64,000 bases of DNA. Origin: Methanocaldococcus sp. 16A (lineage in GTDB: Archaea > AGJL01 > Methanococci > Methanococcales > Methanocaldococcaceae). This document shows positions 6,892 through 33,209 of this stretch, one piece after another. Numbering within the stretch: the first letter of the stretch is position 1; each line of letters opens with the position of its first letter. The DNA lies in assembly GCA_049860595.1 (NCBI GenBank), contig CP187551.1; one strand, given 5' to 3'. A program made the translations under genes and the position numbers. Below the pieces are notes generated by a model that saw only the letters and a list, made by a program, of their open reading frames with translations, was not told the origin of the DNA and searched no databases.

Positions 6892-6989
6892 AAAGTATAT
6901 TCATATATATTGATTAACTAACTTTAGAATAATTTTAAAATTGTAGAATTAAAAATGGAAACTTTGATAGTTTTGTGCAAAGTGAGAGG

Positions 6990-12300: not shown

Positions 12301-13086
12301 AGATAGTGTAAACATGGTTGTGTTTATTAAAACATGGATGAATGGCTTTCCATCTTTATAGAAGAATTTTTTAAACACACCTAATGTTCCAATAGCCCCT
12401 AATTCATTTTTTAAATGAGATGTAAAGACGGCAACAGGTATTGCTCCCTTATCTTCAATAATTTCAATTAAATCGTTGAGATAATCGATATTGTTTGCAA
12501 TAAACCAATTTCTATAAAATAGAACACCAATTATCGGTTTGCCATTTATATCTTTTCCAATTTCTTTTAAATAATTTAAATAATCCTCTAAAGTTTCAAA
12601 GTATTTGTTTTTGTAATAAATTCCCTGCCATGGCATTGGCTTTGGTTCTTCATAGGGGATGTTTTTATCTCCAAATGTATTTGCTAAATATAATAATAGA
12701 TTTTTGTAATTTTCAACTCCTTCATAGCCCAAATATTTGATAACCTTTAACTTAACTTCCTCGCTCACTGTCGTTGCTTCATCCAAGTCAGGATGAACCT
12801 CATTTAGCGTAGGAAGAGGTAGGAAGGGAATGTTATGTTTATCAACAAATGCTTTTAATTCATCAAAATATCTAAACGCACTTTTACCACCCATGAGTTT
12901 TGTAAATACAATGTTAGCATCTTTAATAAATTCTAAGAACTCTTTAAACTCTTCCTCGCTACATTTATAGTCTAATATTTTAAATTCAATTCCATATTTT
13001 TTTACGTCCTTGTATGCCTCTTCAAAAACTAAATCATCACTATCAACAGTTGAAACAAACCCTATCTTTATCATAATTTTCACCAT
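9385..13086 (-). CDS. cobN: Cobaltochelatase subunit CobN (CobN/ChlH family)
   Basis: 1233 aa; MPEFDG, HIGKHGSLEWLPGK, NNPGEGTQAKRR, LPTGRNFY, RPRIDV..RISGLFRD, NPKWIEGM..HGYKGA; start may be ATG 13074. Confidence 0.95.
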   Translation of the reverse strand: MVKIMIKIGFVSTVDSDDLVFEEAYKDVKKYGIEFKILDYKCSEEEFKEFLEFIKDANIVFTKLMGGKSAFRYFDELKAFVDKHNIPFLPLPTLNEVHPDLDEATTVSEEVKLKVIKYLGYEGVENYKNLLLYLANTFGDKNIPYEEPKPMPWQGIYYKNKYFETLEDYLNYLKEIGKDINGKPIIGVLFYRNWFIANNIDYLNDLIEIIEDKGAIPVAVFTSHLKNELGAIGTLGVFKKFFYKDGKPFIHVLINTTMFTLSMGVKADILMDEPEFLKKLNVPILQGIVSTGFIEDWEKSISGINPIDLVIGMAMPEFDGTIIHFPIGGKKKIKDGDVGVPIIKYKSIKDRAEKIVNLAIRYANLKLKPNDEKRIAIIFHNYPPRNDKIASAFGLDSPESVLNILKELKKRGFVVDELYENGTELIKKMLNYATNDKRFLTEDVIKKAVGKVKKEDYKKWFNSLSEKVKNELIKNWGAIPGEVMNFNGELIIPGIINGNIFISVQPPRGFGENPSAIYHSPDMPPTHYYIAFYKWIKDVFKADAVMHIGKHGSLEWLPGKGAGLSRDCYPDICMGLPNVYPFIVNNPGEGTQAKRRSYATIISHLIPPMTTSDLYGELAELEREIDEYYEADNKEKKNFLKKNIINKIKELKLDEDLMDGKVTNENINEENFENLLNKIHDYLEELKNRQINEGLHIMGVPLEGDKLVNMLFMIIRYQFNYLEKLAEILGYDWDKLNEEKGKNHKIIDKINEIGLNLLEEYMEYNFDENKINELKTIKINSELMVILKTVSKIYKNLMRVNEEIENAVNALEGKYIPPRLAGAPTKDINCLPTGRNFYSCNPQEIPTKSAYEMGKRLAEDLLNKYLEEEGKYPEYLGIVVWGSPTMRTKGDDIGEILYLLGVKPVWNKMGRIVGFEVIPLEELGRPRIDVTLRISGLFRDTFPQVVDLIDEAIRTVANLDEPDEMNYVKKHYKQEVEEKLKKGMDEKTARETSLYRIFGCKPGCYGAGVADLLTEKNWKSLEDLAKVYVEWGGYAYGKGIYGVDAKEEFINRLSKIEVTVKNEDSQEWDIFEGDDFNSYHGGMIAAVTYYSGKQPKSYIGDTSNPYKIKTKHLKEEGKQIFRTKIMNPKWIEGMKKHGYKGASDFSKYIEHMFQWDATSNIIDDWMYQKIAEKYVFDKDMEKFFKENNPYALLNITEVLLEAIERGMWKADEETKEKLRKKYLEIEGMIEEKL

Positions 13087-13190: not shown

Positions 13191-13622
13191 ATGGAAAAGA
13201 AGAAAGAACTTTTAAAGAAAATCAGAGAGTTTATGATTTTAAATTTAGAGATTAAAAAACTATCAAAAGAGTTAGGAATTAATGAAATACATGACACTTA
13301 TGAAGATGTTACAAAACTTGTTAGAGAACCAAATAAAAGATTATATAAAATGCTTTATGATGCGGCAATGGAAATAGAATACGAAGAGTTTGGCGGGAAG
13401 AAAAGGAAAGAAATTCCATGGTTTCCAAAGATTGACTATGAAAAATGCAAAAATTGTAAGAAATGTGTTGAATTTTGCCCTAAAGGTGTCTATGATATAG
13501 AAAATGGTAGAGTTATTGTTAAATACCCATACAATTGCATAATTAACTGCAACGCTTGCTCATATATGTGCTGTGAGAACAACGCCATAATTTTTCCAGA
13601 GAATAAAATAGAAAAATTATAA
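13191..13622 (+). CDS. Ferredoxin-domain protein (N-terminal helical region + 2[4Fe-4S])
   Basis: CKNCKKCVEFCP and CIINCNACSYMCC motifs. Confidence 0.85.
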   Translation: MEKKKELLKKIREFMILNLEIKKLSKELGINEIHDTYEDVTKLVREPNKRLYKMLYDAAMEIEYEEFGGKKRKEIPWFPKIDYEKCKNCKKCVEFCPKGVYDIENGRVIVKYPYNCIINCNACSYMCCENNAIIFPENKIEKL

Positions 13623-13632
13623 GTGATAGATT

Positions 13633-14319
13633 ATGAAAATTGGTTATTTGAGTATTAGTGATAAAATAACAGTTATGTGTTACGGATGTAATTTTAAATG
13701 CAAAAATTGTTTTGTTAAGATGGACAGTTATAAAGAAATTTCTCCAACCAAACTATGCAAAATAATTGATAATCTATGCAGTAAAAAGAAAATAAATACT
13801 ATCCTAATCGCTGGTGGAGAGCCTACACTTCAGAAAGATTTGCCCGAATTTACAAGATTGTTAAAGAGTAAAAATAGAAAAGTGATTCTAACCACAAACG
13901 GATATTATTTAAAAAATATTGTTGATGATTTATTTGTTGATGAAATACATGTTGATTTAAAAGCTTTTAATGAAGAAAAACACAAATATTTAACTGGAAA
14001 ATCAAATAAAAATGTCCTAAAATGTATAGAATATTTAGCAAAGAAAAAACTTAATTTTGAGGTAGATACTGTTCTAATTCCAAATATTGTGGATATTGAT
14101 GAGATTGAGAAGATTGCAAAATTTTTAAGCAAATGGGATGTTAGATATAGGATTATTGGATATACTCCATTTAACAATAATCTAAATGCACGAAAACCTA
14201 CAAAGGAAGAGCTTTTAAAGGCAAAAGAAATTGCAAAAAAATATTTAAGTAATGTAACTACCTCATTAGATTTTAGACGGCATAAAAAAGTTAAAGAGAT
14301 TATAAAATTTGATAAATAA
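13633..14319 (+). CDS. Radical SAM protein, PFL-activase/NrdG-like
   Basis: GCNFKCKNC, GGEPTLQ, TNG, VDLKAF..EKHKYLTG motifs. Confidence 0.85.
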   Translation: MKIGYLSISDKITVMCYGCNFKCKNCFVKMDSYKEISPTKLCKIIDNLCSKKKINTILIAGGEPTLQKDLPEFTRLLKSKNRKVILTTNGYYLKNIVDDLFVDEIHVDLKAFNEEKHKYLTGKSNKNVLKCIEYLAKKKLNFEVDTVLIPNIVDIDEIEKIAKFLSKWDVRYRIIGYTPFNNNLNARKPTKEELLKAKEIAKKYLSNVTTSLDFRRHKKVKEIIKFDK

Positions 14320-14324
14320 AGTTT

Positions 14325-15470
14325 TTAATTTTTAGATAAATTTTGATAATGTTTTAATAGTTGAGCCTCTAAATCTTTAATGCTTCCATTGAATTTTATA
14401 ACTTTTTTGGCATTCTCTAAAAGTTTTAAGTTTAATTTATTCATTTCTCCTACCGGAAAGTTTGTATCTATTACAACATCACACATTTTTAAGTATTTTA
14501 ATGCCTTATTGTAATTATCTTCAGAAATTGGTTGATATGCTTTTTCTTCAATAATCTCAACTTCCATTGCTTTAGCTATTATATAATCAATATCATTCTT
14601 ATGTAAGACCCCACAATAAACCTTATATCCATTTTTAACCAAATATCTCAAAACATTAGCTCCACTCCCCCCTCCACAAACTACAAAAACTTTTTTATCA
14701 CTTGTATTTTCATTTTTTAATTCAAAATAACCAATTTCTTTGGAAAAATTTGCATTTTTTATATCATATAAATTATTGACGGTTTCTTTGTCCATAACAT
14801 CCTCAGGATGTCCATAGGCAATTATCTTACCATCTTTGATTAGTGCTATTTTGTCGGCAATCCTTAAGGCGAGTTCTATATCATGAATAGTTACAATTAT
14901 AGCGAGATTTTTTTCTGTTGCCAATTTTCTCAACAACAAAGTAAGTTCTATCTTGTGCCTTGCATCTAAGAAGGATGTAGGTTCATCTAAAATTAAAACC
15001 TTTGGCTCTTGTGCTAACGCCCTTGCTATCATTATCTTCTGTCTTTCCCCATCACTCATTTCAAGGAAGTTTTTTTCTAATAAGTGAAGAGCATTAACAG
15101 CTTTCGCAGAATTTATAATAATTTCCTTATCCTTCTCTGATAATCTTCCAAATAAATCTGTATAGGGATGCCTTCCTATTGCAATTATATCAAATCCTGT
15201 TAAATTTCCTGGATTTACTCTTTCTGTTAAAACTACAGCCATTTTTTTAGCAAGTTGAGAAGGTTTTAGTTTATGTATTATATTTGAATCTAAATAAACT
15301 ACTCCTTTTATAGGCTCTAGATATGTTGCTATACACTTCAATAGTGTTGATTTTCCAACACCATTAGGACCTATTATTGCCAAAATTTCTCCTTCTTTAA
15401 CTTCTAAATTTACATTATCAACGACAATTCTCTTATGATAACCAATGGCAAGATTTTCCGTTTTTAACAT
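14325..15470 (-). CDS. ABC transporter ATPase, BtuD/FepC type, with C-terminal extension
   Basis: Walker A GPNGVGKS, MSDGERQ signature, LILDEPT, H-loop; extra ~125-aa domain VFVVCGGGSG...GVLHKNDID. Confidence 0.92.
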   Translation of the reverse strand: MLKTENLAIGYHKRIVVDNVNLEVKEGEILAIIGPNGVGKSTLLKCIATYLEPIKGVVYLDSNIIHKLKPSQLAKKMAVVLTERVNPGNLTGFDIIAIGRHPYTDLFGRLSEKDKEIIINSAKAVNALHLLEKNFLEMSDGERQKIMIARALAQEPKVLILDEPTSFLDARHKIELTLLLRKLATEKNLAIIVTIHDIELALRIADKIALIKDGKIIAYGHPEDVMDKETVNNLYDIKNANFSKEIGYFELKNENTSDKKVFVVCGGGSGANVLRYLVKNGYKVYCGVLHKNDIDYIIAKAMEVEIIEEKAYQPISEDNYNKALKYLKMCDVVIDTNFPVGEMNKLNLKLLENAKKVIKFNGSIKDLEAQLLKHYQNLSKN

Positions 15471-15554
15471 TTAATCACCTTATAAGATAAGATTATAATT
15501 AAAATCTCAAAAAGGAGAAATTAAAAAATATAAAAGTAGAAACATTGAATTATG

Positions 15555-17564
15555 TCATTTTTTTATTAGGAATAATAATTCTTTTTTATAAATTAACAGC
15601 AACCCTATCAAAAATCCAATTAAAGTAGTCCATATATTTGGTTCGTCTTCTATTTCAACTTTTTTTGTAATTGTGTAATTTTTTACGATTTTATTAACTT
15701 TTATAACAACTTTTGATTGGTTAATTGTTAAATTGTAGTAATAATCATTAAATATCGTCTTTTTTGGCTTTATAATCTCAACATCTTCTTTAAAATTCCA
15801 TATATATTTAATTAACCTCTCATAGGGCATGTAATATTCAACATACCCATTTATTTGAGTGCTTTTTGAGACATTTATTGGGATTGAAAATACTTTTGTT
15901 TCATTTGGCAGTAATTCAAATGAAATATGTGTTTTGTTTGGTTTGTAGTTATTATAATCTGAAAAGTAAATATATCCATGAATTTTTTCAGAGAAAGGAT
16001 TTTTTACTGTAATATTGCAAAATATTGTTATATTAGTTTCATTAGAATATATTGTTTTATTGCTAAGTGTGATATTTATTGGATTTAACTTTTTTATCTC
16101 AATTAGGCATTTATCATATGAAGTAGCTCCAAAGGTATCATTAACCTTTAATTTAACAACGTAATTTCCTTCTTTTTTATATCTATGAGTTGGATTTGAA
16201 GAAGTTGACGTTGAGTTATCGCCAAAATCCCAGTAGTAGTGGAGTTCATCATTTTCCTTATCATAGCATAAAGAATAGAAATGAACATCGTAATCATCAA
16301 CTATTTCAAATGCAAAATATGCTTTTGGAGGTGTGTTGTTTCCCCTTGGAATTATATGAATGATTTTTGTATCTTTCAATGGAACATCAACAATCCCATT
16401 TTCATCAAACAAATAAAGCTGTGAGATTTTTATTTCGGTAGTTACATTTTCATTTTTTATTGGCTCTATCCAGAAAGATAAAATACTGAAGTTTCCACGT
16501 ACACTTCCATTTATTTTAATATAAAAATCTATTGTACCATTCTCATCTGTCCAATTTTTATCTATGGTGGATAAACTTGTTGATATGTCACTAATTTTCA
16601 ATAGTGTTGAATTGTAGGATATTTTTCCTTTAATTTCTGATATATTTGCATCTATGTTTTTTGCCTCAATGTAAATGAATCCTTTATCTCCATAAGAGAT
16701 ATTTTTTTCAGTAGTTGAAAAACCAACATACTTTTCTACAGTTGTTTCTTCACCGATTGTGAAGTTTGCTGGTTTTACAATTGTGTCATTTCCATTTATC
16801 TTTACAGATGCGTTAATTAGGTAAGTCCCTTCTTTGCTTGTGAAGAATGTCAATTTCATCAAATCAAAATTTTCTTCTGAAGTATTTAACTCAACAAAGA
16901 AATTTAAACTATCGTTATTGTAATTTAAATCTACATTTGAAATGTTATTTTCTAAATAATAGAAGTTTAAACCTACAATACTTAAATTTGGGTAGTATAT
17001 TGTTCCAGTTATGTTATATGTATTTTCTTTTGCGTTTTTTATTGAAATGAGAACATCAAAATTCTCATTTAACTTTGGATTTATGGGAGTTATCTCAACA
17101 ACCGTTGAATTTAAACCAATAATATTTACTTCAACAGAGTTGTAAGTTGCATCTATGGCATTTCCATCTATATCAGACAGTTTAGGCTTTTGGGTTATTG
17201 TATATGTTCCATTGTCCAATGCTTTAAACCTCAAAGTAGCTACTGTAAAGTTTCCGGAAGGTTCATTGCCTGACCACATCAGTGATATTGATATTTTTCC
17301 ATCATCTACAGAAATACTCTTTAAGAATGCACTATTGGCTATATCACTTAAAATGATATCATCAGTGGTTATGTTTAATGCACTTGGGAAATATATGGTA
17401 TCTTCAAACCCACTCAATTTTTCTGATACATTTACGCTCAATGTTAAATCAAAGTAGTCATATTCATTCACAACAATATTATCTGGCGTTAATCTAACTT
17501 CATTTCCAAAACTTACATGAAAGAACAATAAAAATGAAATCAATATTAAAAATTTCGACTTCAT
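15555..17564 (-). CDS. Secreted multi-cohesin-like + PKD domain protein with C-terminal TM anchor
   Basis: Signal peptide; about three cohesin-like repeats (e.g. FDLTLSVN..LSGFEDTIYF...GNFTVATLRFKALDNG..LSDIDGN); PKD motif YYWDFGDNSTS..NPTHRYKKEGNYVVKLKV; hydrophobic tail + KK. Confidence 0.72.
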   Translation of the reverse strand: MKSKFLILISFLLFFHVSFGNEVRLTPDNIVVNEYDYFDLTLSVNVSEKLSGFEDTIYFPSALNITTDDIILSDIANSAFLKSISVDDGKISISLMWSGNEPSGNFTVATLRFKALDNGTYTITQKPKLSDIDGNAIDATYNSVEVNIIGLNSTVVEITPINPKLNENFDVLISIKNAKENTYNITGTIYYPNLSIVGLNFYYLENNISNVDLNYNNDSLNFFVELNTSEENFDLMKLTFFTSKEGTYLINASVKINGNDTIVKPANFTIGEETTVEKYVGFSTTEKNISYGDKGFIYIEAKNIDANISEIKGKISYNSTLLKISDISTSLSTIDKNWTDENGTIDFYIKINGSVRGNFSILSFWIEPIKNENVTTEIKISQLYLFDENGIVDVPLKDTKIIHIIPRGNNTPPKAYFAFEIVDDYDVHFYSLCYDKENDELHYYWDFGDNSTSTSSNPTHRYKKEGNYVVKLKVNDTFGATSYDKCLIEIKKLNPINITLSNKTIYSNETNITIFCNITVKNPFSEKIHGYIYFSDYNNYKPNKTHISFELLPNETKVFSIPINVSKSTQINGYVEYYMPYERLIKYIWNFKEDVEIIKPKKTIFNDYYYNLTINQSKVVIKVNKIVKNYTITKKVEIEDEPNIWTTLIGFLIGLLLIYKKELLFLIKK

Positions 17565-17579
17565 TGTTATCCCCTAACA

Positions 17580-18404
17580 TCATTTAAATCTTGATAGAAT
17601 AAAGCCAAAAAGAATCCCTGCCAACACTCCAGAGAGCAAATTAAATCCTAAAAATTTAAAACTACTCTTTTTTTCCACAACTACATTAACTACCGGATGG
17701 TATTCCGTTATGTTAATTTCTTTAACAATAACTTCTGGTTCCTTTACTTTAGGGGTTATGTAAATCCTATTTACTATTGTTGATGAAGATGTTTCAACAT
17801 CTTCTACATCTTCTTTTAGTTTCATTGTTGTTGTGTTTGTTACATTTCCAATGCCTTTTATTATCACCTTTGCCCCAAAGAACTTTATGTTTGGATATTC
17901 TTTGAATGTATTTGTAGATTTGTCAAAATAACTTTCACCACTACCATACCTGTACCCCAATGCTGAACTAACAGATCCTGACAAATTTAATTGGGTTTCT
18001 CCTTCTTTAATAGGAATAAACATTATTTCTCCGATACAAAAATCTTCTTCAATGGGATTATTAAATGAAATTGATAAATTAAATGCTCCATCTTTAAATT
18101 CATAAAACTTTAACTTCTCATTTTTACATATCTCACTCCAATTAAAACCATAAGGTTTTAAATATTCAGGAGGGTAGTTTATATAAATATCCACTCCTCT
18201 ACACCCACCGTCTTCACTATTATCATGATAAAGATCTCCAATTTTTGGAAGATTTTCTATCGTTATGTTAAATTTAATAATCTCTCCATTTGAAATAACT
18301 TCCTCGGGGATTAATTTAACATAGACATCTTCTGCATAACAAATATCTAAAAAAATAGAAATAATGGAAATAAGAGTTAAAATAACTAAAAAATGTTTAT
18401 TCAT
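17580..18404 (-). CDS. Secreted single cohesin-like protein with C-terminal TM anchor
   Basis: Signal peptide; FNITIEN..GCRGVDIYINYPPEYL...IGEIMFIPIKEGETQLNLSG; C-terminal FLGFNLLSGVLAGILFGFILSRFK. Confidence 0.65.
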   Translation of the reverse strand: MNKHFLVILTLISIISIFLDICYAEDVYVKLIPEEVISNGEIIKFNITIENLPKIGDLYHDNSEDGGCRGVDIYINYPPEYLKPYGFNWSEICKNEKLKFYEFKDGAFNLSISFNNPIEEDFCIGEIMFIPIKEGETQLNLSGSVSSALGYRYGSGESYFDKSTNTFKEYPNIKFFGAKVIIKGIGNVTNTTTMKLKEDVEDVETSSSTIVNRIYITPKVKEPEVIVKEINITEYHPVVNVVVEKKSSFKFLGFNLLSGVLAGILFGFILSRFK

Positions 18405-18949
18405 TACCCATCACCTTTTTTTATAATGTAAGCTATCAATCCAATTAAAAGAACTGCAAATATGACCATTATTGGATTAAATGAAAATGATTCATTTTTT
18501 TCTACTTTTTGAGTGGAATTAGATATTATCTTTAGATTTACTGTTTTTTGAGGGATTTTAATGGCATTTCCTTCACTGTCTGATGCCTTTGCCTTTATTG
18601 TTATCGTTGCATTTCCACATTCCAAAGCCTTTATTTTGAATTCACCAACTTTAAAATCCTCATTTTTTGGATTTGTCAAAAAAACATACTGTATTGCAGC
18701 ACTTCTATTTTTGTTTATTGTTAAGTTGTAATCTGCTCCAACATCATAGCTAATTACATTATCTACTACAAGGTTATTAGAGAGGTAAATATTGCATTCT
18801 AAACCTCCACAATTTGAAACATTATTTGCGTAAACTTCTACAACAAATAAATCTCCTTTTTTAACTTCAGAAGGAGCTTTTACTGAAACATCTATTGCCA
18901 TACATGTTGGAAGTATAAGAAAAATCAACAATGCAGCAAACTTTTTCAT
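18404..18949 (-). CDS. Secreted single cohesin protein with C-terminal TM anchor
   Basis: Signal peptide; APSEVKKGDLFVVEVYANNVSNCGGLECNI...VGEFKIKALECGNATITI..SDSEGN; TM tail + KK. Confidence 0.75.
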   Translation of the reverse strand: MKKFAALLIFLILPTCMAIDVSVKAPSEVKKGDLFVVEVYANNVSNCGGLECNIYLSNNLVVDNVISYDVGADYNLTINKNRSAAIQYVFLTNPKNEDFKVGEFKIKALECGNATITIKAKASDSEGNAIKIPQKTVNLKIISNSTQKVEKNESFSFNPIMVIFAVLLIGLIAYIIKKGDG

Positions 18950-18990
18950 GCTCTCACCAAAGTAAAGATTACTTTATTAATAGTAAAAAT

Positions 18991-19030
18991 TACCGTAAAA
19001 TATATATACCTACCGTAAAATATATATACC
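18991..19030. repeat. Perfect 20-bp tandem duplication TACCGTAAAATATATATACC x2 in divergent promoter region
   Basis: Read directly; each unit contains a TATA-like TATATATA. Confidence 0.9.
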
Positions 19031-19129
19031 TATTGTTAATATCATAATCTTTGTTTTTGTTAAAGATTTTTTTAATAAAATTAACTATTTATTTATAATA
19101 ACAATCTAATATAAATATTAAATGGTGGT

Positions 19130-20485
19130 ATGATGCCGAAAAATATTAATATCATTGGGTATATATTACTTACCGTTTTCTTACTATTAGTGCCAGTATA
19201 TGCAGAAGGTGATTACAACTATAGATTGGGTGATGTCAACAAAGATGGTTCCATTGATATTGCAGATGTGGTTTATCTTTTCAAACACAGAGACCTTGAT
19301 ATAGAAGATGGTGATTTAAACGCAGATGGCAGCATAGACATTGCTGATGTTGTTTATCTCTTTGTTAATTATCAAAAAATGAGAGAACCTATTCATTATG
19401 CCAAAAATATAAAAATTACATATTATGATGAAAATGGAAATGAAGTAAATCCTTACAATGGAGAATCTTATGCATACAAAATAGTTGAAGACGCCACTGG
19501 GCAGAGATTACTATTAAAAAATGAAAGTCAGCCAATACCTTCATGGGCTGAAGGAAAATACGACAAGGTAATTAATGTCCCATTAAAAAGAGTTGTTGTG
19601 ATGAGTTCCACCCACATAGCTTTAATGGAACCACTAAATGACGATGGCTCAGTGATTGGCTCAGTGAAGGGAATAATGTGGGGAGGAACATACAAGTGGT
19701 ACTTTGATGATATTAAAGAAGGGCTTAATAATGGTTCAATAATTGACGTTGGTTCTTCATACAGTCCAAATTATGACTTAATTATTAACATCTCCCCACA
19801 GGTTGTGTTTGTCTATCCAGGATACAGCGGAGATGCGATAATTGCAAAATGTAAGGAATTGAACATAACTTACGTTGCTGATGCAGAATACTTAGAAGAT
19901 TCTTACCTTGCAAGATGTGAATGGGTAAAGATGTTTGCAGCGTTTTACAATAAAGAAGATGTGGCAAGCAAATACTTCACAAGAATAGAAAAGAGGGCAT
20001 TGAATGTGAAAAGATTAACAAGAAATACAAATAGACCATTAGTGGCTTGGGGTAAGAACTATCCAAAATATGGTGGAACATACGTTCCAAAAGCACAGTC
20101 CTATGTTGCTAAGGCAATCATAGATGATTGCCATGGAGATTATATATTTAAAGACATTCCAGGGACTGGCAGTGCATGCATAGATTACGAGACATTTGCA
20201 GAGAGGGCAAAAGATGCAGACATCTGGGTAGTTCCATCAAGCACAACATGGTTATCAACCTTTAAAGATGACCATCCAGGATATGAAAACTTTAAAGCTG
20301 TGCAGAATGGAAGATTGTTCTGTATAAGTGATGATTACTGGCAACTTGGATTAATGAATACTGATGAGGTATTGATGGATTTAGCAACAATATTACATCC
20401 AGATGTATTCAAAGGAAGAACTACTCACTACTTCCTAAAATATAATCCTAATACTAATACAGCCGAGCCATATACCGCAGAATAA
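19130..20485 (+). CDS. Dockerin-tagged ABC substrate-binding protein 1 (BtuF/TroA-like helical-backbone fold)
   Basis: Signal peptide (VPVYA-E); duplicated GDVNKDGSIDIADVVYLF / GDLNADGSIDIADVVYLF (nt 19229-19372); then VPLKRVVVMSSTH, EYLEDSYLARCEWVKMFAAF, VLMDLATILHPD. Confidence 0.85.
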   Translation: MMPKNINIIGYILLTVFLLLVPVYAEGDYNYRLGDVNKDGSIDIADVVYLFKHRDLDIEDGDLNADGSIDIADVVYLFVNYQKMREPIHYAKNIKITYYDENGNEVNPYNGESYAYKIVEDATGQRLLLKNESQPIPSWAEGKYDKVINVPLKRVVVMSSTHIALMEPLNDDGSVIGSVKGIMWGGTYKWYFDDIKEGLNNGSIIDVGSSYSPNYDLIINISPQVVFVYPGYSGDAIIAKCKELNITYVADAEYLEDSYLARCEWVKMFAAFYNKEDVASKYFTRIEKRALNVKRLTRNTNRPLVAWGKNYPKYGGTYVPKAQSYVAKAIIDDCHGDYIFKDIPGTGSACIDYETFAERAKDADIWVVPSSTTWLSTFKDDHPGYENFKAVQNGRLFCISDDYWQLGLMNTDEVLMDLATILHPDVFKGRTTHYFLKYNPNTNTAEPYTAE

Positions 20486-20536
20486 ATAAAAATTACTTTT
20501 CTTCTTTTAAAAATAAATTTTTGAAGGTGACTGTTG

Positions 20537-23500
20537 ATGAAATGGAAGGTGCTTATACTGTCAATTTTAATGGCATCACTAATAGGAGTTTATGGTGAAA
20601 ACGTAACAGTAGAGTTGGTTCCATCAGATGTTATGGGATATGTTGGGGATACTATTAACTTAGATTTAGTTGTAAAAAATGTAGGTGCTGAGGGATGTGA
20701 GGGCTTTGATACATATATTTATTTTAATTCAAGTATTTTGAATATATCTGAAAACAATATTACCTTAAAAGATGTAAGTGGGAGTATATCTAAAGAGGAT
20801 ATATCAATATCCAATGGAAAAATTTGGATTTCGTTATGGTTTAGTAAAAGTTTTACAGGGAATTTTACAATTGCCACACTATCATTTAAGGCAATAAATG
20901 AAGGTCAAGGAACAATATCATTGTATGGAACTGTTTTATCTGATTCAAATGGATTCCACATTGAGCCATTAATTTTAAAAAACTCAAATGTAAAAGTATT
21001 ATATAAACCAATTGCTGACTTGTTAGTTCCTGAAATTATAAATGCTGAATTTGGAGATAATGTAACTGTTCCAATAACTGTAGCTCCAAAGGTAAATGAA
21101 ACTGTGAATGTAATAAAAGGATATTTATCGTACGATAAAAATATGTTAAAACCAGTAAATGTATCTTCAAATGTTGGAAATGTTTTCTTCAATAGTTCAA
21201 GTGATTACTTTGAAATATCAAATATAAATCAATCAACAAACTTCACAATTAACATCACCTACAATGTAATAAATGTTGGAAATACCACAGTAAAATTGGA
21301 TAATGTCTATATGGAAGATATCAATGGAAGTTATGTAAAGGATATTTCATCAAATGCAACCACAATAGTAATCCCAGGACCTGATTTAGTAGCAGAGATA
21401 ATACCAGTATCACTCAAAGCATATACAAACAATACAATACCTATATTGGTAAAGAATATTGGGGAGAGGAATGTAACAGGTAACTTCTCAGTTAAGTTAT
21501 TGGTAGATACAAATGAGATAGGAACCTATACAATTAATGGATTGAATGTTGGAGAAACTAAGGAGGTAAACTTCACATTCATGCCTACAGAAGAGAAGAA
21601 TTACACACTTTGTGTTTTAGTTGATTGCAACAATGACGTAAAGGAAATTGATGAGAACAACAACAAATACGTTGATGAATTGTATGCTACAGAGGAGCCA
21701 ATAAGTGTAAATCTTATATCATCAACGAACTTAACAAAAACTGAAGAAACCTTTGAAGTTAGCATCACATTAAATAATATAACATCCGATAGACCAGCAA
21801 AGGCAATAGAAGGAGTTTTAACTTATGATAGTGGAGTATTAGATTGTATAAACTTTACATTCCTAATCAATGCATCTGAAGAAAATGGGACCTTACTGGA
21901 GAACATAACCTATGAAAAAGGCAAGGTAATATTCAAATTAATGGATGGTATTATTAACTCCTCAACAGTTGTAGCTATTGCTAAATTTAAGGCAATAGAT
22001 GTTGGAAACTCAGATATTGGTCTATCAAATTTAGTAGTATCTGACATACATGGATATAAATTTAACAAAGTATTAACAAACAATGTAAATGTTGTTGTAC
22101 AAGGTCCAAACATCAAAATAACCGACATCAATATATCAAACCCATTAATATACAGAATTCCAACTACAATAAACATTACAATAACAAACAATGGACATCA
22201 AGAAGCAAAACCATTTGATATTGTATTATACGCTGATGCCAATGAGATTGGAAAAGTAACAGTTGATGGGCTGAATATTAGTCAAAGTAAGACTATAGTA
22301 TTTAATTGGACTCCAGATGATATAAAAACATTTACAATAGTAGCAGTTGTTGATCCATCCAACGCAGTTAAAGAGGAGAATGAAAGTGATAATAAGCTTG
22401 TTAAGAAAATAAATGTTATAGAAATTCCAGTTTGGGTAAATGTATATAACACAACACCTGTAATTAATGGAACCTTTAATGCTACAATAGAGGTTAATGG
22501 AATAAATGAAAGGTTATGTAGTGGATATGATGGAAAGTTGATATTCAAAAACTTAAAAATTGAAAACATAGAACTTATTGGAATAAACAACTACACAATA
22601 AATAACAGTGAGTTAATATTCAGCGGATACAACTTCACAAAGTTAGGAACATTTAAAATAGCAAATATAACATTTAGAATAATTGATGAGAACAAGAGTT
22701 ACTCAGCAATATTGAAGTGCGTAGTGTTATCGGACAAGGATGGATACAAGTTTGAGAAGGTATTTATCAACAACACAATATTGGATGAGAGCTTACAAAA
22801 GGTCTTTGAAGGATTGTGTATTGAATCAGATGTGCTTGATAAAGTGGATATTGATAATGTGAAATTAGAATCTGTTGGAGATATTAACATAACAGTATTG
22901 CCTGTTAAAATTGGAGATATTGTAGATGAATTAACAATACCAAAAGTTAGTGAAAATATAACAATAAATATTACAGATGATGTTATTATAAAAATAAATT
23001 CAATATTGAACGATGCAAAAACATTAGAAGAAATTACCAAATCAGTAGATGATGAAGTAGAGTTAAATAAAACGTTGGATATGATATTAGAAAATATAGA
23101 ACCACTACTATGCGAAGGATTTAACATAACAAACAAAACTAAAGAAGAACCAAAGGAAATTGGTAATAAATTAATATCAACAATAAAATTCAAGGCAGAG
23201 AACTCATCCAACAAAGGATTTGTAATCGTTAGAATTCCAGTTGGTGAATTAAAAGTTGAGAATATTGTTGTAAATAACGGAACAGCGAATATTACCTTAA
23301 AAGAAAACGATGCTAACAGTAATGTAGGTTGGTATAAATATGTAGGTAATGGAGTTATTGAAGTTATCTTAATAAAAGACCCAGAAGTAAGTATTACTCT
23401 TACTAAAACATTACCTGTAATTCAAACAACTACAACAGCTTATTACTACAGTGGTGGAGGAAGCCATCATACAGCAATAGAACTCTACTCAGATGTTGCA

Positions 23501-23917
23501 CAAGATATTAAATCAACAAAAATAAAAGAATTTGTCCATAAAGCAAAATTAATCATAGGTTCAAAAATTGACATGAACTTATCAGCAAAATGCCTTAAAA
23601 ACGAATCAGAGTTAATAAATAATGCACTAGAGATAAAAGAGGATTGCATTTTAATTGGAGGACCCGTAGCGAACCCACTAACTAAGAAATATATGTGGAC
23701 ATTCCCAGTAAAAGTAACTAACGACTATCCAGGAAAACACAAAGGAGTTATAGAAAAACAAATAATAAATGGACACACAGTAATACTATTAGCAGGTTCA
23801 GATAGATGGGGTACAAAGGCAGCTGTAGAATACTTCAAGCAGTTAGATGATATTCCAGATGAACCAATATTTGTAGAGTGGAAAGATGGAAAAGCTATTA
23901 AAATAGAAAAACCTTAA
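20537..23917 (+). CDS. Scaffoldin-like surface protein: multiple cohesin-like + 2 CARDB domains + C-terminal S-layer-type domain
   Basis: Signal peptide; cohesin-like repeats (GNFTIATLSFKAINEG..LSDSNG; VAIAKFKAIDVG..VSDIHG; IANITF..LSDKDG); CARDB motifs PDL..VKNIGE..VDCNNDVKEIDENNN and VDPSNAVKEENESDN; Thr/Gly linker; ILIGGPVANPLTKKY...LAGSDRWGTKAA as in methanococcal S-layer C-domain. Confidence 0.8.
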   Translation: MKWKVLILSILMASLIGVYGENVTVELVPSDVMGYVGDTINLDLVVKNVGAEGCEGFDTYIYFNSSILNISENNITLKDVSGSISKEDISISNGKIWISLWFSKSFTGNFTIATLSFKAINEGQGTISLYGTVLSDSNGFHIEPLILKNSNVKVLYKPIADLLVPEIINAEFGDNVTVPITVAPKVNETVNVIKGYLSYDKNMLKPVNVSSNVGNVFFNSSSDYFEISNINQSTNFTINITYNVINVGNTTVKLDNVYMEDINGSYVKDISSNATTIVIPGPDLVAEIIPVSLKAYTNNTIPILVKNIGERNVTGNFSVKLLVDTNEIGTYTINGLNVGETKEVNFTFMPTEEKNYTLCVLVDCNNDVKEIDENNNKYVDELYATEEPISVNLISSTNLTKTEETFEVSITLNNITSDRPAKAIEGVLTYDSGVLDCINFTFLINASEENGTLLENITYEKGKVIFKLMDGIINSSTVVAIAKFKAIDVGNSDIGLSNLVVSDIHGYKFNKVLTNNVNVVVQGPNIKITDINISNPLIYRIPTTINITITNNGHQEAKPFDIVLYADANEIGKVTVDGLNISQSKTIVFNWTPDDIKTFTIVAVVDPSNAVKEENESDNKLVKKINVIEIPVWVNVYNTTPVINGTFNATIEVNGINERLCSGYDGKLIFKNLKIENIELIGINNYTINNSELIFSGYNFTKLGTFKIANITFRIIDENKSYSAILKCVVLSDKDGYKFEKVFINNTILDESLQKVFEGLCIESDVLDKVDIDNVKLESVGDINITVLPVKIGDIVDELTIPKVSENITINITDDVIIKINSILNDAKTLEEITKSVDDEVELNKTLDMILENIEPLLCEGFNITNKTKEEPKEIGNKLISTIKFKAENSSNKGFVIVRIPVGELKVENIVVNNGTANITLKENDANSNVGWYKYVGNGVIEVILIKDPEVSITLTKTLPVIQTTTTAYYYSGGGSHHTAIELYSDVAQDIKSTKIKEFVHKAKLIIGSKIDMNLSAKCLKNESELINNALEIKEDCILIGGPVANPLTKKYMWTFPVKVTNDYPGKHKGVIEKQIINGHTVILLAGSDRWGTKAAVEYFKQLDDIPDEPIFVEWKDGKAIKIEKP

Positions 23918-23918
23918 T

Positions 23919-23947
23919 CATTCTTCTTTTTTAATTAATCTTTTTTA
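23919..23947 (+). terminator. Oligo-T archaeal terminator after scaffoldin gene
   Basis: TTCTTCTTTTTT...TTTTTT immediately after stop codon. Confidence 0.45.
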
Positions 23948-24159
23948 AAAGTTTCATGGAAAAGTAATAAAAATTGAAAAACCTTAAAAATCTCTCAATT
24001 TAATTCTTTATTTTATTATTTTAGTAATAATATTTTTAAAAATTCTCTTACTTTTAACAACATTTAATTAAAAACATCATAAATTATATATATAAAATAT
24101 GTTAAATTATTATCACGTAACATTATTTGAAAAAATATAATACTAAGGAGTGGATTACC

Positions 24160-25479
24160 ATGTTTAAAAAAATAGTATTAATAATGGCTATTTTATTGAC
24201 ACCATTAGCATTTGGAGAAAACGTAGGAGATGTAAATGGAGATGGTTCAATAGATATTGCTGATGTTGTATATCTCTTTAAGCATAGAGATGTCCCATTA
24301 GAAGTTGGAGATTTAAACTGTGACAATTCCGTTGACATTGCAGATGTTGTATATCTATTCGTCAACTACCAAAAATGGAGAGAACCTGTAGTGTTTGCTA
24401 AAAACTTTGAAATAGAATACTACGATGTAAATGGAAATCCAGTAAGTTATGATGACAATTGGGCTTATAAAATTGTAACAACAAAATACGGGGACAATAT
24501 TTATAATAAGTACTGCATTGTTAGAGAAGGAGAGAATCCTCCAAGTAATCTGCCTTCAGATGTTAAAGTTATATATGCCCCAGTGAAAAAAGTTGCTACA
24601 GATAGTTCTTTCCAAGTAGCTATGCTTGAGGCTTTAAATGATGATAATGTAAGAAAATCCTTAAGAGGAGTATCTAAATACACATATACCAAAATAAAAG
24701 ATTATGGAGTTTTCCCGAACTTAAAACCTTATGTCGATAGTGGAAATATAATTCCAATAGGAAAATGGGGCGCACTTGATAAAGAGGCATTATTAAATAT
24801 AAGTCCAGACATTGTTTTCTTAACTTGGACACATGGTTATTTAACTACAGATATTGATACTGTAAAGGATTTAGGACTCAATTATCTCGTAACTGTAGAA
24901 TCAAATGAACCAGACTTTAGAGCAAAGGCAGAATGGGCAAAGGTATATGCTGCATTTTATAACTTAGATGCCAAAGGAAATGATTTCTTCCAGAAAGTTT
25001 GGAAAAAGAGAAATGAACTTATAAGAAAAACAAGAAATGCTGACTATAGACCAAAAGTAGCTATGCTCTATTGGTCACTATATTCAGGACCTTGGGTCTA
25101 CTGTGCCCAAAACTACTATGCAAAATGGGTTTTAGATGTTAAAGGAGATTACTGCTTCCTTGATATTCCAGGAACATCTTATGTAAATCTTGATAAAGAA
25201 ACAACCTTAGAGCACCTCCAAGACTGTGATGTATTCATATACATGAATTGGAACTCATTAAATGAGCCAATGGATACACTTGAAGAATTAAAAGAAAGAA
25301 GACCTGACTTAGCACCTATATTAGATCATGCAAAGAGAGTATATGTAACAAAACCAAATTATTCCTATGATGGAAATGTAAATATGGACTTGTTGATGGA
25401 AGACTTTGCAAGAATGATACATCCAGAATGCTTTGATGGTGGAGATAGCGAATTACATTACTTCAAAAAACTGAAATAA
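24160..25479 (+). CDS. Dockerin-tagged ABC substrate-binding protein 2 (BtuF/TroA-like)
   Basis: AGGAG RBS then ATG 24160; signal peptide (PLAFG-E); dockerin nt 24226-24369; APVKKVA, EPDFRAKAEWAKVYAAF, LLMEDFARMIHPE. Confidence 0.85.
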   Translation: MFKKIVLIMAILLTPLAFGENVGDVNGDGSIDIADVVYLFKHRDVPLEVGDLNCDNSVDIADVVYLFVNYQKWREPVVFAKNFEIEYYDVNGNPVSYDDNWAYKIVTTKYGDNIYNKYCIVREGENPPSNLPSDVKVIYAPVKKVATDSSFQVAMLEALNDDNVRKSLRGVSKYTYTKIKDYGVFPNLKPYVDSGNIIPIGKWGALDKEALLNISPDIVFLTWTHGYLTTDIDTVKDLGLNYLVTVESNEPDFRAKAEWAKVYAAFYNLDAKGNDFFQKVWKKRNELIRKTRNADYRPKVAMLYWSLYSGPWVYCAQNYYAKWVLDVKGDYCFLDIPGTSYVNLDKETTLEHLQDCDVFIYMNWNSLNEPMDTLEELKERRPDLAPILDHAKRVYVTKPNYSYDGNVNMDLLMEDFARMIHPECFDGGDSELHYFKKLK

Positions 25480-25789
25480 TCATACTATTTTTTAATTTTT
25501 ATTCTATTTTTATCTTCTAAATATTTAAATTTAAAGTTTATTAAAATATTTTTATATATTATCAAGATAACTATAAGTGATTTGATATGATTTTCAATAA
25601 CACTTTATATTCAATAAAAAACTCATTTCTATGAATGGTCTATACTATTGAACTTATTGAAGTCAAAGGCTTCAAAATATCCTTAATATCTATTTAAAGT
25701 GCATTCAACCTGTTATATATGACTTTAAGCATCTATATGCCTTATAAAATTTTATTTCTGCGAAAGCTCTATTTAAACTCTCATAGAAG

Positions 25790-26842
25790 GTGGTTATTTT
25801 GAAAATTAGGATTAAAGCTCTAACAGTATTTTTACTTTTAATGATATTTTCTTTGTCAATATTGAGTATAACTACTGGAACCATAAAAATAGAGCCAAAA
25901 AAATTTTATAACTATTTAATGGAAGGCACTACGGGTAATCCAATATGGGATAATGTTATTGAAAAGTGCAGACTTCCAAGAACTGTTGGAGCAATATTTG
26001 CAGGAATGGGTTTAGCAGTAGCAGGCTTGTTGATGCAAAGTTTGTTTAGGAACCCTTTAGCTGACCCTTATCTAATAGGGGTCTCGAGTGGGGCATCTTT
26101 AGGAGTAGCTCTTTATGTTTTTACATCATTACTATTTGAATTAGGAATTCCTCATTCAATATGGGGTTTTATATTAGCAGCCTATTTAGGCTCTCTGTTC
26201 TCTATGTTAGTAGTTATATCGTTAGCAAGGAAAGTTAGGCAAATTACTACACTTTTAATTGTTGGGCTCATGATTGGCTATATTTCCTCAGGTTTAATAA
26301 CTATTGTTATAACCTTTGGAGATTTCTTAGGTGTGGAGAATAGCAATTTGGCAAGTTTTATGATGTGGGGATATGGTTCTTTAAGTTCTTTGACTATGAA
26401 TAGAGCCATAATAATGGCTATACTGGTGGTTATTTGTAGCTTTATAACCTATTTTTTATCTAAGTATCTTGACGCCTATTTGCTTGGAGAAAACTACGCA
26501 AAGAGTGTTGGAGTTAATATAAAAAATTTGAGGATTGCCATAATTTTAATATCTTGTATGATTACTGCAAGTATTGTAGCATTTGCTGGACCAATAGGAT
26601 TTGTAGGAATGGTTTGTCCAATTGTTGCAAGGTTGGTATGTGGAACATCAAAACATTTCTATGTAATTCCTAATGCTATGTTAATAGGTGCAATTTTTTT
26701 AATAATAGCTGATATTCTTGTAAGACCTGGAGTAATAATTCCAACAACAAGCACAGAACTACCTTTAATGTGTCCTTTATCAATTATAGGGGCTCCAATA
26801 GCCATAATGATATATATCAAAAGAAAAAAGATGGGGATATAA
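25790..26842 (+). CDS. FecCD/BtuC-family ABC permease
   Basis: [32 protein letters not shown]; [11 protein letters not shown]; GPIGFVG. Confidence 0.95.
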
Positions 26843-27858
26843 TGAGAAAAATATCCGTGATTTTGCTAATGGTTTTGTTAATATTTTCTCTATTTGTTTT
26901 TGGGATATTTAAAGGAGGTAATGCAAAATCAATAACTATGGGTGATGTAAAAAATTTTTTAATTTATGGGACTACAGGAGATGAGTTTAAAGACAATATT
27001 ATATGGAATGTTAGAATTCCTCCGTTAGTCACTGCTTTAATTGTTGGAGCAGTTCTATCAGTTTCAGGATTAAAACTTCAGACACTTTTTAGAAATATTT
27101 TAGCGTCTCCATATACAACTGGAATATCCACTGGAGTTATATTAGGTGTGGCTATAACAGTATTCTTAGGTTTTTCATTCTCAAATATTATAAGAATTCC
27201 TGATTATATTGTAGGAGGTTGGATAGGTGCAGCTATAGCTTTAATAATATTATTGGCTCTTGCTTCAAAAATTAAGGATGTTACTGGAGTTTTAATTTGT
27301 AGTATATTGTTTGGATACTTCTACTATGGAATTGAGAGTTATTTAATAAGTTTTGCTGACAATGTCCAGATTCAAGAATTTTGGATGTTTTTACAGGGAA
27401 GTTTTTCAGGGACTAGATGGAATGATTTAAAATTAATGGCTATCTGCTCATTAATCTTTTTGATATTCTCATATATGCTTTCAAAGCATTTAAATGCCTT
27501 ACTCTTTGGAGAAAAATATGCAAAAAGCTTTGGTTTAAATATAAAATATGTTAGGATATTAATTTTATTACTCTCGGGATTTATTGTTGGGGCAGTAATT
27601 CCTTATGTAGGTTTAATTCCATTTGTTGGTTTGGCAGCGCCATATATTGCAAGAATTTTAATGAAAACTTCAGACCACAGATGGACAATTCCAGCAGCTA
27701 TGTTAATTGGGATGTTCATTTCACTACTGTGTTATTTGGTGTCAATAAAGATATTTGCCCCGAGAGTAGTTCCTGTAAAATCAATTTTAGATTTATTAGG
27801 TGGGGCGTTAGTAGTGTATATAATATACAAATCTGAAAAAAGATATAGAATAGATTGA
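26842..27858 (+). CDS. FecCD/BtuC-family ABC permease 2
   Basis: LQTLFRNILASPYTTGI, LFGEKYAKSFG, GLIPFVGL..P; ATG overlaps previous TAA. Confidence 0.93.
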   Translation: MRKISVILLMVLLIFSLFVFGIFKGGNAKSITMGDVKNFLIYGTTGDEFKDNIIWNVRIPPLVTALIVGAVLSVSGLKLQTLFRNILASPYTTGISTGVILGVAITVFLGFSFSNIIRIPDYIVGGWIGAAIALIILLALASKIKDVTGVLICSILFGYFYYGIESYLISFADNVQIQEFWMFLQGSFSGTRWNDLKLMAICSLIFLIFSYMLSKHLNALLFGEKYAKSFGLNIKYVRILILLLSGFIVGAVIPYVGLIPFVGLAAPYIARILMKTSDHRWTIPAAMLIGMFISLLCYLVSIKIFAPRVVPVKSILDLLGGALVVYIIYKSEKRYRID

Positions 27859-29701: not shown

Positions 29702-29830
29702 TTACACCAAAAATGTTTTAGATTTTAATTAGATTTTAATGGGATTAATTATGAAATATAATTTTTTGGAAATGTGTTAAAATAAAATTATGTCTAATTA
29801 TTTAAGTTTAACAAATTATTTCAAAAAATT

Positions 29831-29930
29831 ATAGTAGGACTTTCGCAGGTATAAATATTGGAAGGTTTATTTAATGCTTTTGGCATCATTTTTTTACTAC
29901 TAAATATATAAAGTGCGAAAGTCCTATTAT
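29831..29930. repeat. ~100-bp palindromic repeat (TAGGACTTTCGCA...TGCGAAAGTCCTA family)
   Basis: Terminal inverted repeats read directly; multiple copies in window. Confidence 0.85.
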
Positions 29931-30379
29931 AATCACACAAAAAATTTTAAAACAAATATTTAAAATTTTTCTTTAAATTTTAAATTCTAACAATACACTC
30001 ATTTTTTTGTTATTTATCTTTTAGTTTATATTAAAATAGGATGTTTTTAGCAAAAAAGAATCTAAATATAGAAAAATCAATAATTAAATTTTCAATACCA
30101 TATGTCTGATTTTAATTATATTTTTTTAATCATTTAATTTTTAATCATTTAATATTCTTTAAAACTTAAATACGTATATTACCTAATTAATATCACAGAT
30201 TTTTTCGCCAACATCATCAATAGATAATTTTCCCACAATTAATGAAAAAATCGCTCATACCTTTGAGTGATTCAGTTAAGGGAACCTGAATTTAGTATAT
30301 CTACCGTTAGAAAGGTTTATCTTTGGGATGTATCCAAGACAGCATAAATTACTGACATACTAACACTAATTTTATTTGC

Positions 30380-33064: not shown

Positions 33065-33155
33065 GACTTTCGCAGTTTATAAATTAAGTAATGAAAAAAT
33101 TATTCCCTTGGCATCGAAAATTTCTTTCAATATTTATTCCTGCGAAAGTCCTATT
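33060..33155. repeat. Palindromic repeat copy; supplies pheT stop codon
   Basis: AATAGGACTTTCGCAG...CTGCGAAAGTCCTATT; TAG 33062-33064 is pheT stop; TTGAA on both sides of TAGG...CCTA core. Confidence 0.88.
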
Positions 33156-33209
33156 GAATAATTCTAATGTCTTGTATAGATATTTATAAAAAATTTTTTA
33201 AGTGAAAAT

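Follow-up and report, generated by a model that had tools for sequence, protein, structure and literature searches.

Within a 64,000-nt stretch of DNA (the window) from the heat-loving methanogen Methanocaldococcus sp. 16A (contig CP187551.1; genome 1.62 Mb, 99.98% complete), we analyzed a cluster of nine genes at 14325-27858 that encodes an ATP-binding cassette (ABC) importer, two exported binding proteins carrying dockerin domains and four exported proteins carrying cohesin domains. Indirect but convergent evidence supports an interpretation in which cohesin-dockerin docking takes over the job of a lipid or membrane anchor and keeps the binding proteins on the cell. The G+C content of the window is about 30%, and the nearest named protein relatives belong to Methanocaldococcus, Methanothermococcus, Methanofervidicoccus and Methanococcus.

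The nine genes form two divergent transcription units separated by an intergenic region of 180 bp (18950-19129). The minus-strand unit consists of Sca181 (18404-18949), Sca274 (17580-18404), Sca669 (15555-17564) and an ABC ATPase (14325-15470), with successive spacings of a 1-nt overlap, 15 nt and 84 nt, such that the ATPase closes a unit opened by three membrane-anchored cohesin genes. In the plus-strand unit the order is SBP451 (19130-20485), Sca1127 (20534-23917), SBP450 (24127-25479) and two FecCD/BtuC-type permeases (25790-26842, 350 residues, and 26770-27858), which places the gene for the S-layer scaffoldin Sca1127 between those of the two binding proteins. The likely true start of SBP450 is the ATG at 24160, and orthologues of the second permease begin at the Met at 26842, their alignments starting at residue 25. 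The importer is of type II, as indicated by the scores of its permeases (FecCD, 241.3 and 224.1 bits), its ATPase (ABC_tran, 104.9 bits) and its binding proteins (Peripla_BP_2, 79.4 bits for SBP451 and 45.1 bits for SBP450). A preliminary description, made from the letters alone, had listed one ATPase, two FecCD permeases, two binding proteins and four secreted cohesin proteins and had seen no glycoside hydrolase; Pfam searches located each of the listed genes, and Pfam and NCBIfam scans of the cluster proteins likewise found no glycoside hydrolase. A promoter/terminator scan returned 100 sites vs 94.8 expected, using a consensus that is bacterial for a host that is archaeal.

SBP451 and SBP450 each begin with a type-I signal peptide (cleavage regions …VYA↓EG and …AFG↓EN, respectively), followed by a dockerin (nt 19220-19405 and nt 24217-24402) and a cluster-A binding-protein fold. 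No lipobox Cys occurs at the cleavage region of either protein, and in a Kyte-Doolittle scan the sole hydrophobic segment of each was N-terminal, in keeping with the earlier claim that they have a signal peptide and neither a lipobox Cys nor a transmembrane (TM) anchor. Independent membrane anchoring of the binding proteins, which the preliminary description had raised as a possibility, was ruled out by these two inspections.

The N-terminal duplicated motif noted earlier was also borne out: a D-x-N-x-D-G-x-I-D-I-A-D loop followed by a helix occurs twice in each binding protein, giving the tandem pair of 12-residue Ca loops, each with its helix, that defines a type I dockerin. Dockerin_1 (PF00404) scored 27.2 bits with SBP450, above the cut-off of 22.9, and 22.5 bits with SBP451, 0.4 below it, and in an AlphaFold2 (AF2) model of SBP451 (predicted local distance difference test, pLDDT, 91.8) the dockerin helices lie at residues 44-52 and 71-85. 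Because a whole-genome search with PF00404 gave 0 matches at E<=0.01, although hmmscan of the proteins detects the domain, we took the dockerin census with a regular-expression scan and a custom dockerin profile in its place; both found two dockerins genome-wide, those of SBP451 and SBP450. Across orthologous modules the Ca-ligand positions D5, N7, D9, D16 and D32, N34, D36, D43 are invariant (27/27), and the V-V-Y-L-F helix core behind the Ca loops is likewise conserved. A profile built from these 27 modules matches solved type I dockerins (5lxv_B, 1.1e-5; 2ccl_B, 2.5e-5). In sequence searches of the PDB, SBP450 alone matched only dockerins (5lxv_B, 2jnk_A) and SBP451 alone had no match, so no solved close relative points to a ligand.

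Within each of 11 genomes the dockerins of SBP451 and SBP450 are 52-92% identical and the rest of the proteins 20-26% identical; by these sequences the two are old paralogues. Lineage-specific dockerin variants are common to both paralogues and include changes at helix positions I/V, then A/S/I, which we take to be specificity positions. Such concerted evolution is expected if both paralogues must fit the same cohesins.

The putative partners were collected with a hidden Markov model (HMM) seeded on the third, Pfam-certified cohesin of Sca1127 and iterated over all six-frame open reading frames (ORFs) of the genome and related loci. The model converged on nine domains genome-wide, the remaining 2974 six-frame ORFs yielding none, and a separate whole-genome search with a cohesin profile returned the same nine; the "about nine" cohesin-like repeats counted by eye in the four secreted proteins are thus exactly nine. 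Following its signal peptide, Sca669 carries three of them (nt 17121-17516, 16761-17129 and 16362-16748; residues 17-148, 146-268 and 273-401), then a PKD domain (nt 16119-16289; PKD_4, 54.5 bits), a beta-rich region and a C-terminal TM anchor (residues 647-667). Sca274 has a signal peptide, one cohesin (nt 17913-18341; residues 22-164; 118.5 bits with the iterative HMM), a linker and a C-terminal TM anchor (residues 248-274), and Sca181 has the same arrangement on a smaller scale, with one cohesin (nt 18539-18910; residues 14-137), a linker of about 15 residues and an anchor at residues 153-181. In Sca1127 a signal peptide precedes four cohesins (20588-20992, 20996-21367, 21686-22093 and 22415-22783), two CARDB domains (21380-21670 and 22145-22399; CARDB 122.6 bits for Sca1127, 69.8 bits for the second domain), a region of about 210 residues and an S_layer_C module (23438-23833; 32.2 bits, and 46.9 bits in the genome search). 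The CARDB domains and the one PKD domain are present besides the cohesins as spacers.

The assignment of these repeats as cohesins draws on several comparisons. Pfam Cohesin (PF00963, cut-off 24.1) scored 39.4 bits with full-length Sca1127 and matched five of the nine repeats when these were submitted singly, two above the cut-off (Sca1127 domains 1 and 3, with 25.6 and 29.6 bits) and three just below it (Sca1127 domain 2, 20.7; Sca669 domains 1 and 3, 21.2 and 20.0). A profile of the 106 domains that the iterative HMM collected from the genome and related loci matched almost exclusively solved cohesins among PDB sequences (39 matches at E<=1), headed by 3l8q (5.6e-13) and by 2xdh, the cohesin of Archaeoglobus fulgidus (5.6e-8). 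We modelled one of the nine domains, that of Sca181, which is the least Pfam-like. Its AF2 model (pLDDT 95.3) is a nine-strand beta-sandwich, Foldseek placed 2xdh first (3.7e-8, TM-score 0.70), and cohesins fill nearly all of the listed ranks. Generic Ig or CARDB folds, the outcome that the preliminary description had set against a cohesin identity, were ruled out by the 106-domain profile search and the Sca181 structure comparison.

The Kyte-Doolittle scan places a hydrophobic helix at the C-terminal end of Sca181, Sca274 and Sca669, and the S_layer_C module of Sca1127 occurs also in the 568-residue main S-layer protein and two other proteins of the genome. Five cohesins are accordingly membrane-anchored (one on Sca181, one on Sca274, three on Sca669) and four sit on the S-layer scaffoldin. 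This division raises the possibility of a two-tier, dynamic system in which binding proteins load at Sca1127, or off the cell, and then re-dock on Sca181, Sca274 or Sca669 beside the permease. Such shuttling would make use of the two anchor classes (a C-terminal TM helix in three proteins, S_layer_C in the fourth) and of nine sockets for two plug types, and the near-symmetrical dockerin repeats could permit two binding modes. Cellulosomal cohesin-dockerin pairs are very tight, however, which argues against fast hopping; the sequences give no sign of an affinity difference between the tiers; and one genome (G006) keeps only the single membrane-anchored Sca181, the S-layer tier being dispensable there. 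Even with the precedent of a multiprotein extracellular cobamide relay in Bacteroides thetaiotaomicron, as outlined in the available part of its description (PMC13616437), we consider shuttling quite unlikely. Outside the genus of the window, Sca181 orthologues (L006-L012, L019) end in a conserved amphipathic tail (…NFLKSILGG-like) with no clear TM helix, and these tails may represent a different membrane or S-layer attachment.

Support for a functional connection between dockerins and cohesins came from a comparison across 40 Methanococcales genomes searched with both profiles. Dockerins and cohesins were both present in 26 genomes and both absent from 12. The remaining two genomes are G017 (99% complete), with a dockerin and no cohesins, and G030 (64% complete), with cohesins and no dockerin, in which a contig end truncates the binding-protein gene. 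All dockerin matches that were checked in the 40 genomes fall within ORFs of the binding-protein type or pieces of such ORFs. We then compared 20-kb loci (labelled L001 onward) from 18 of the 37 genomes with a binding-protein match, 14 of them dockerin-bearing and 4 dockerin-less. Of the 14 dockerin-bearing genomes, 11 have all four Sca types next to the binding-protein genes; among the other three, G006 has Sca181 only, G021 a different three-cohesin scaffoldin, and G017 none. The four dockerin-less loci contain no Sca gene; in all of them both binding-protein orthologues lack the first ~80 residues of the dockerin form and start instead with a lipobox signal peptide (…PGC, …AGC or …SGC), which leads into a linker rich in Ser, Thr and Asn. 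Named proteins of the lipobox form come from M. fervens and Methanocaldococcus sp. FS406-22, and outgroup homologues from Archaeoglobi and bacteria also carry a lipobox. The M. jannaschii control genome had no PF00404 or PF00963 match.

As judged from these alignments, the dockerin occupies the position of the predicted lipid anchor and comes and goes together with the cohesins. The preliminary description had proposed that docking replaces lipid anchoring, and this natural swap, with lipobox orthologues in relatives that lack all cohesin genes, supports the proposal, physical binding being the predicted part of it. The same data bear on a different reading, in which the cohesin proteins have a general surface or adhesion role (cell-cell contact, biofilm or S-layer decoration), the dockerin-like repeats merely bind Ca2+ or stabilize the binding proteins, and the two hitchhike on one genomic island. 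CARDB, PKD and cohesin domains are read as adhesion-related in ANME (anaerobic methanotrophic archaea) genomes in the part of a review available (PMC5244752), the dockerin without cohesins in G017 fits such a reading, and co-occurrence could be explained by island linkage alone. We nevertheless find it improbable. The dockerin sits exactly at the relatives' lipobox-anchor position, a cell lacking a closed periplasm would lose binding proteins that had no partner, the genome holds no other dockerins for nine cohesins, the paralogues' dockerins evolve in concert, and the ATPase gene follows the cohesin genes closely and in the same orientation.

To follow the anchor types, we built a tree of the binding domains (40 rows, 9 of them retaining the dockerin; 371 of 489 columns kept at a 30% fill filter). 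The tree needs three changes of anchor type: a lipobox clade of the A type is sister to all dockerin forms (support 94 and 89), and a lipobox clade of the B type is nested among dockerin forms (support 96).

Some loci depart further from the common arrangement. G006 (L009/L023) has two dockerin-bearing binding proteins, one with a degenerate second repeat, together with the ATPase and Sca181 only, and no permease within the 20 kb fetched. In G004 (L003/L004) the CobN gene and one radical SAM gene beside the cluster are fragmented and interrupted by stop codons. Both look like decaying or rearranged versions of the locus. In the 81%-complete draft genome G011, a 627-residue ORF (L021, G011:C138, 758-2641) combines a dockerin with a truncated domain of the SBP450 type and, over its C-terminal ~250 residues, unrelated sequence; it may be a fusion or an assembly artefact.

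Clues to the ligand lie upstream of the transporter, where six genes adjoin it. In order, these encode a radical SAM protein of 293 residues (6975-7856, plus strand; Radical_SAM 90.5 bits; best NCBIfam models rSAM/SPASM maturases, all below cut-off); a CbiR-like TIM barrel of the xylose-isomerase type, 250 residues, which is a candidate cobamide remodelling enzyme (7858-8610, plus; AP_endonuc_2 109.1 bits; best NCBIfam model the cobamide remodelling phosphodiesterase CbiR, 61.7 bits vs a cut-off of 105); CbiZ, the adenosylcobinamide amidohydrolase of archaeal cobinamide salvage (8603-9388, plus; PF01955 CbiZ 179.8 bits, full-length match 1-191/191); a CobN-type chelatase large subunit of 1233 residues (9385-13086, minus; TIGR02257 1041.3 bits, cut-off 822; CobN-Mg_chel 1357.7 bits); a 4Fe-4S ferredoxin-domain protein of 143 residues (13191-13622, plus; Fer4 family matches); and a radical SAM activase-like protein of 228 residues (13633-14319, plus; Radical_SAM 81.6 bits; best NCBIfam model NrdG2, 92 bits, below cut-off). 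In the available parts of the sources, archaeal CbiZ is a cobinamide-salvage amidohydrolase (PMC3541065) and CbiR, of the AP endonuclease 2 superfamily, remodels cobamides (PMC7733943). At least one of CbiZ, the CbiR-like gene and CobN lies beside the cluster again in other genomes (L001, L004, L009, L010, L017), and in L017, from a distant genus, the permeases and a dockerin-bearing binding protein lie between CbiZ and the CbiR-like gene.

The transporter's own best models point the same way. The ATPase, which has a C-terminal extension of about 130 residues, aligns over residues 1-354, extension included, with PRK09536, 'corrinoid ABC transporter ATPase', and the best NCBIfam model of the permeases is BtuC. 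Because of these models and the CbiZ, CbiR-like and CobN neighbours, we read the system as a corrinoid salvage importer, and a corrinoid is the probable ligand class. Another metal chelate, such as a ferric siderophore, heme, a Ni or Co complex, or a metal-free tetrapyrrole for CobN, could be imported by the same docking architecture. Foldseek matched the SBP451 model to cluster-A binders of Fe-siderophore, heme, Ni-His, molybdate and B12 without discriminating among them; the equivalog cut-offs of the corrinoid and B12 models were all missed (232 bits vs 537 for the ATPase; 183.8 vs 334 for the 350-residue permease), such that the corrinoid call is made by neighbourhood; no NCBIfam model matched SBP451 or SBP450; homologues are named in databases as 'Fe3+-hydroxamate' or 'iron complex' binding proteins; and two unlike binding proteins with a heterodimeric permease recall Fec/Fhu systems. 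A non-corrinoid ligand is nonetheless unlikely in our estimate, given that CbiZ and a CbiR-like gene are immediate neighbours of the transporter in more than one genus and that the ATPase's best model, with its extension, is a corrinoid ATPase. The C-terminal domain of the ATPase (residues ~250-381) has a weak YjeF_N-like Pfam match of 18.1 bits and is kept in lipobox-type loci too.

Taken together, these results are best explained by a type II (BtuCD/FecCD-like) importer, most likely for a corrinoid, whose binding proteins are held by cohesin-dockerin docking and not by a lipid or membrane anchor, and we consider this explanation likely to be correct. The dockerins of SBP451 and SBP450 would plug into the nine cohesin sockets on the four exported proteins, arraying many copies of the two binding proteins beside the membrane and at the S-layer. 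The array would raise capture of a scarce ligand for the single permease/ATPase, and CbiZ and the CbiR-like enzyme, encoded alongside, and possibly CobN would then act on the imported corrinoid (cobinamide or cobamides). The 15-gene unit that contains these genes would move laterally as an island and serve as a functional alternative to the lipobox-anchored transporter of relatives.

Several points, in addition to the undiscriminating fold matches and missed cut-offs given for the ligand, weigh against this explanation. Four of the nine cohesins (Sca181, Sca274, Sca669 domain 2 and Sca1127 domain 4) have no Pfam match and were assigned by the iterative HMM, Sca181 being the one of the four that was also modelled. 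Prediction of a complex between Sca1127 cohesin 3, two Ca ions and the SBP451 dockerin, 1 of 18 possible pairs and run without controls, gave scores of 0.26 and 0.21 (mark 0.32), which speak neither for nor against binding; the dockerin-cohesin contact is inferred, as is lipid modification at the relatives' lipobox. A binding protein docked at the S-layer could not reach the permease unless it undocked, which clouds the role of Sca1127. The nearly complete G017 genome combines a dockerin-bearing binding protein with no detectable cohesin. Finally, the co-occurrence of dockerins and cohesins comprises few independent events, because the genomes are kin, the genes are physically linked and the tree needs only three changes, and genes on one mobile island will co-occur whatever their function.

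The docking arrangement resembles a cellulosome in its multi-cohesin scaffoldins, its surface-anchoring proteins and the duplicated Ca-loop, type I-like dockerins on its cargo (Clostridia; 1ohz, 2ccl). It differs in that the cargo is two ABC binding proteins and not glycoside hydrolases, that the anchors are a C-terminal TM helix or an archaeal S_layer_C module where cellulosomes use SLH or sortase, and that it is single-tiered, with no dockerin on any scaffoldin. Identity with a cellulosome was ruled out, as there is no dockerin-bearing glycoside hydrolase or other carbohydrate-active enzyme (CAZyme) and the genome's two dockerins are on Peripla_BP_2 proteins; because CAZyme cargo is absent, the assembly is cellulosome-like and not a cellulosome.

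Closer precedents are archaeal. The A. fulgidus cohesin 2xdh, the top structural match of Sca181 and second-best in the profile search, is archaeal and has no link to cellulose. The function of this and other archaeal non-cellulosomal cohesins is regarded as unknown or unclear in the available parts of two sources (PMC9012536; PMC5244752), whereas in the window the gene context assigns both cargo and role. In ANME archaea, dockerins occur on NikA/OppA- or TroA-type binding proteins alongside proteins with up to 5 cohesins, and docking was suggested to attach functional proteins to the outer cell layer (PMC9012536, in part); a review, likewise in part, calls the function of such domains in ANME hypothetical (PMC5244752). 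The ANME case shares the dockerin-bearing ABC binding proteins, the scaffoldin-like multi-cohesin proteins and the docking idea with ours. As presented in the available text, it is a genome-wide domain listing that neither ties the modules to a single transporter's operon nor gives anchor-swap evidence or a ligand, whereas the Methanococcales case is one self-contained cluster that holds all of the genome's cohesins and dockerins and is tied to corrinoid salvage genes. The earlier remark that no description of a complete system of this kind was known therefore needs qualification: binding-protein dockerins and multi-cohesin proteins were already reported at the domain level in ANME (PMC9012536, in part), and it stands for Methanococcales, for which we found no description of such a system in the literature searched.

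As a transporter, the system is akin to BtuCD-F and to archaeal corrinoid importers with CbiZ, with which it shares FecCD/BtuC-type permeases, the C-terminal extension of the ATPase, a cluster-A binding protein and an adjacent CbiZ. It is set apart by two unlike binding proteins, two permease genes, sub-cut-off NCBIfam scores and binding proteins that are predicted to be tethered by dockerins and not lipid-anchored or free. The B. thetaiotaomicron relay (BtuJ/H/G-BtuB-BtuFCD), in the portion of PMC13616437 available, is similar in that extra surface layers capture scarce cobamides ahead of a BtuFCD-type importer. Its proteins and envelope are unrelated, its components are lipoproteins on an outer membrane and its capture proteins bind the cobamide themselves, whereas the extra proteins of the window are predicted to hold binding proteins, not ligand.

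Archaeal cohesin-dockerin pairs outside cellulosomes have long been known and puzzling, and this cluster gives them a testable job. It is a closed, minimal case, with two cargos, nine sockets, one transporter and a probable ligand, and nature supplies the controls in close relatives that have the same binding proteins in lipobox-anchored form and lack the cohesins. If the interpretation is correct, docking would join lipid or TM anchors and permease fusion as a third means by which periplasm-less cells keep hold of their ABC binding proteins, and would explain how the ratio of binding protein to permease can rise. It would also offer hyperthermostable, orthogonal cohesin-dockerin pairs for protein display, and would imply that corrinoid scavenging is a selected trait in vent methanogens able to make cobamides themselves.

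The cluster lies on an island of 20.9 kb and 15 genes (6933-27857), whose first gene is the radical SAM gene at 6975 and whose right end is the second permease's stop codon. Relative to the close relatives G001 and G005 it is an insertion, as their flanks abut (left ends at 6932 and 6917; right starts at 27858). G001 carries the same island at another site, circularly permuted and with an exact 30-bp direct repeat on both sides (L026 position 59, L027 position 1843); this repeat does not occur in the window, no integrase gene was seen among the island genes, and no tRNA lies at the island ends. Identities to the window genome (G000) of the housekeeping aspartokinase and of SBP451 are 98% and 92% in G001, and 95% and 68% in G005, the closest relative with the lipobox version; in other genera they are 80% and 92% (G039), 79% and 88% (G004), and 72% and 81% (G036). 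The cluster proteins are thus closer to those of the other genera than the aspartokinase is, and the history of the cluster differs from that of the genome, which indicates lateral exchange of the cluster among Methanococcales. An extension of these observations would be a two-tier corrinoid-harvesting scaffold, in which Sca1127 and the three membrane-anchored cohesin proteins pass binding proteins or ligand to the permease, much as in an outer-membrane-to-periplasm relay of diderms, and which travels between genera as a 20.9-kb plug-in island able to replace the lipid-anchored version; we regard this fuller picture as rather doubtful.

An Rfam search of 5000-31000 matched zero families, hence no cobalamin riboswitch was found there. 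Public names of the scaffold-protein relatives are 'CARDB domain-containing', 'PKD domain-containing', 'APHP domain' and 'hypothetical'. In a profile search of longer proteins (8000 candidates scored), which is a weak guide to wider distribution, all source-named hits were from Methanococcales except P0087, a weak hit (E 1.9e-6) to a bacterial protein named as a type IX secretion system (T9SS) sorting-domain protein.

Outside the island, a 212-residue ORF about 3.4 kb to its left (2856-3494, plus strand) has DNA 73-78% identical to more than 15 sites in G001 and G005 and is probably an insertion-sequence transposase. To its right, repeats of about 100 bp at ~29820-29935 and 33055-33165 match dozens of sites on both strands of the same two genomes at 70-79% identity and look like a dispersed repeat family of these genomes.

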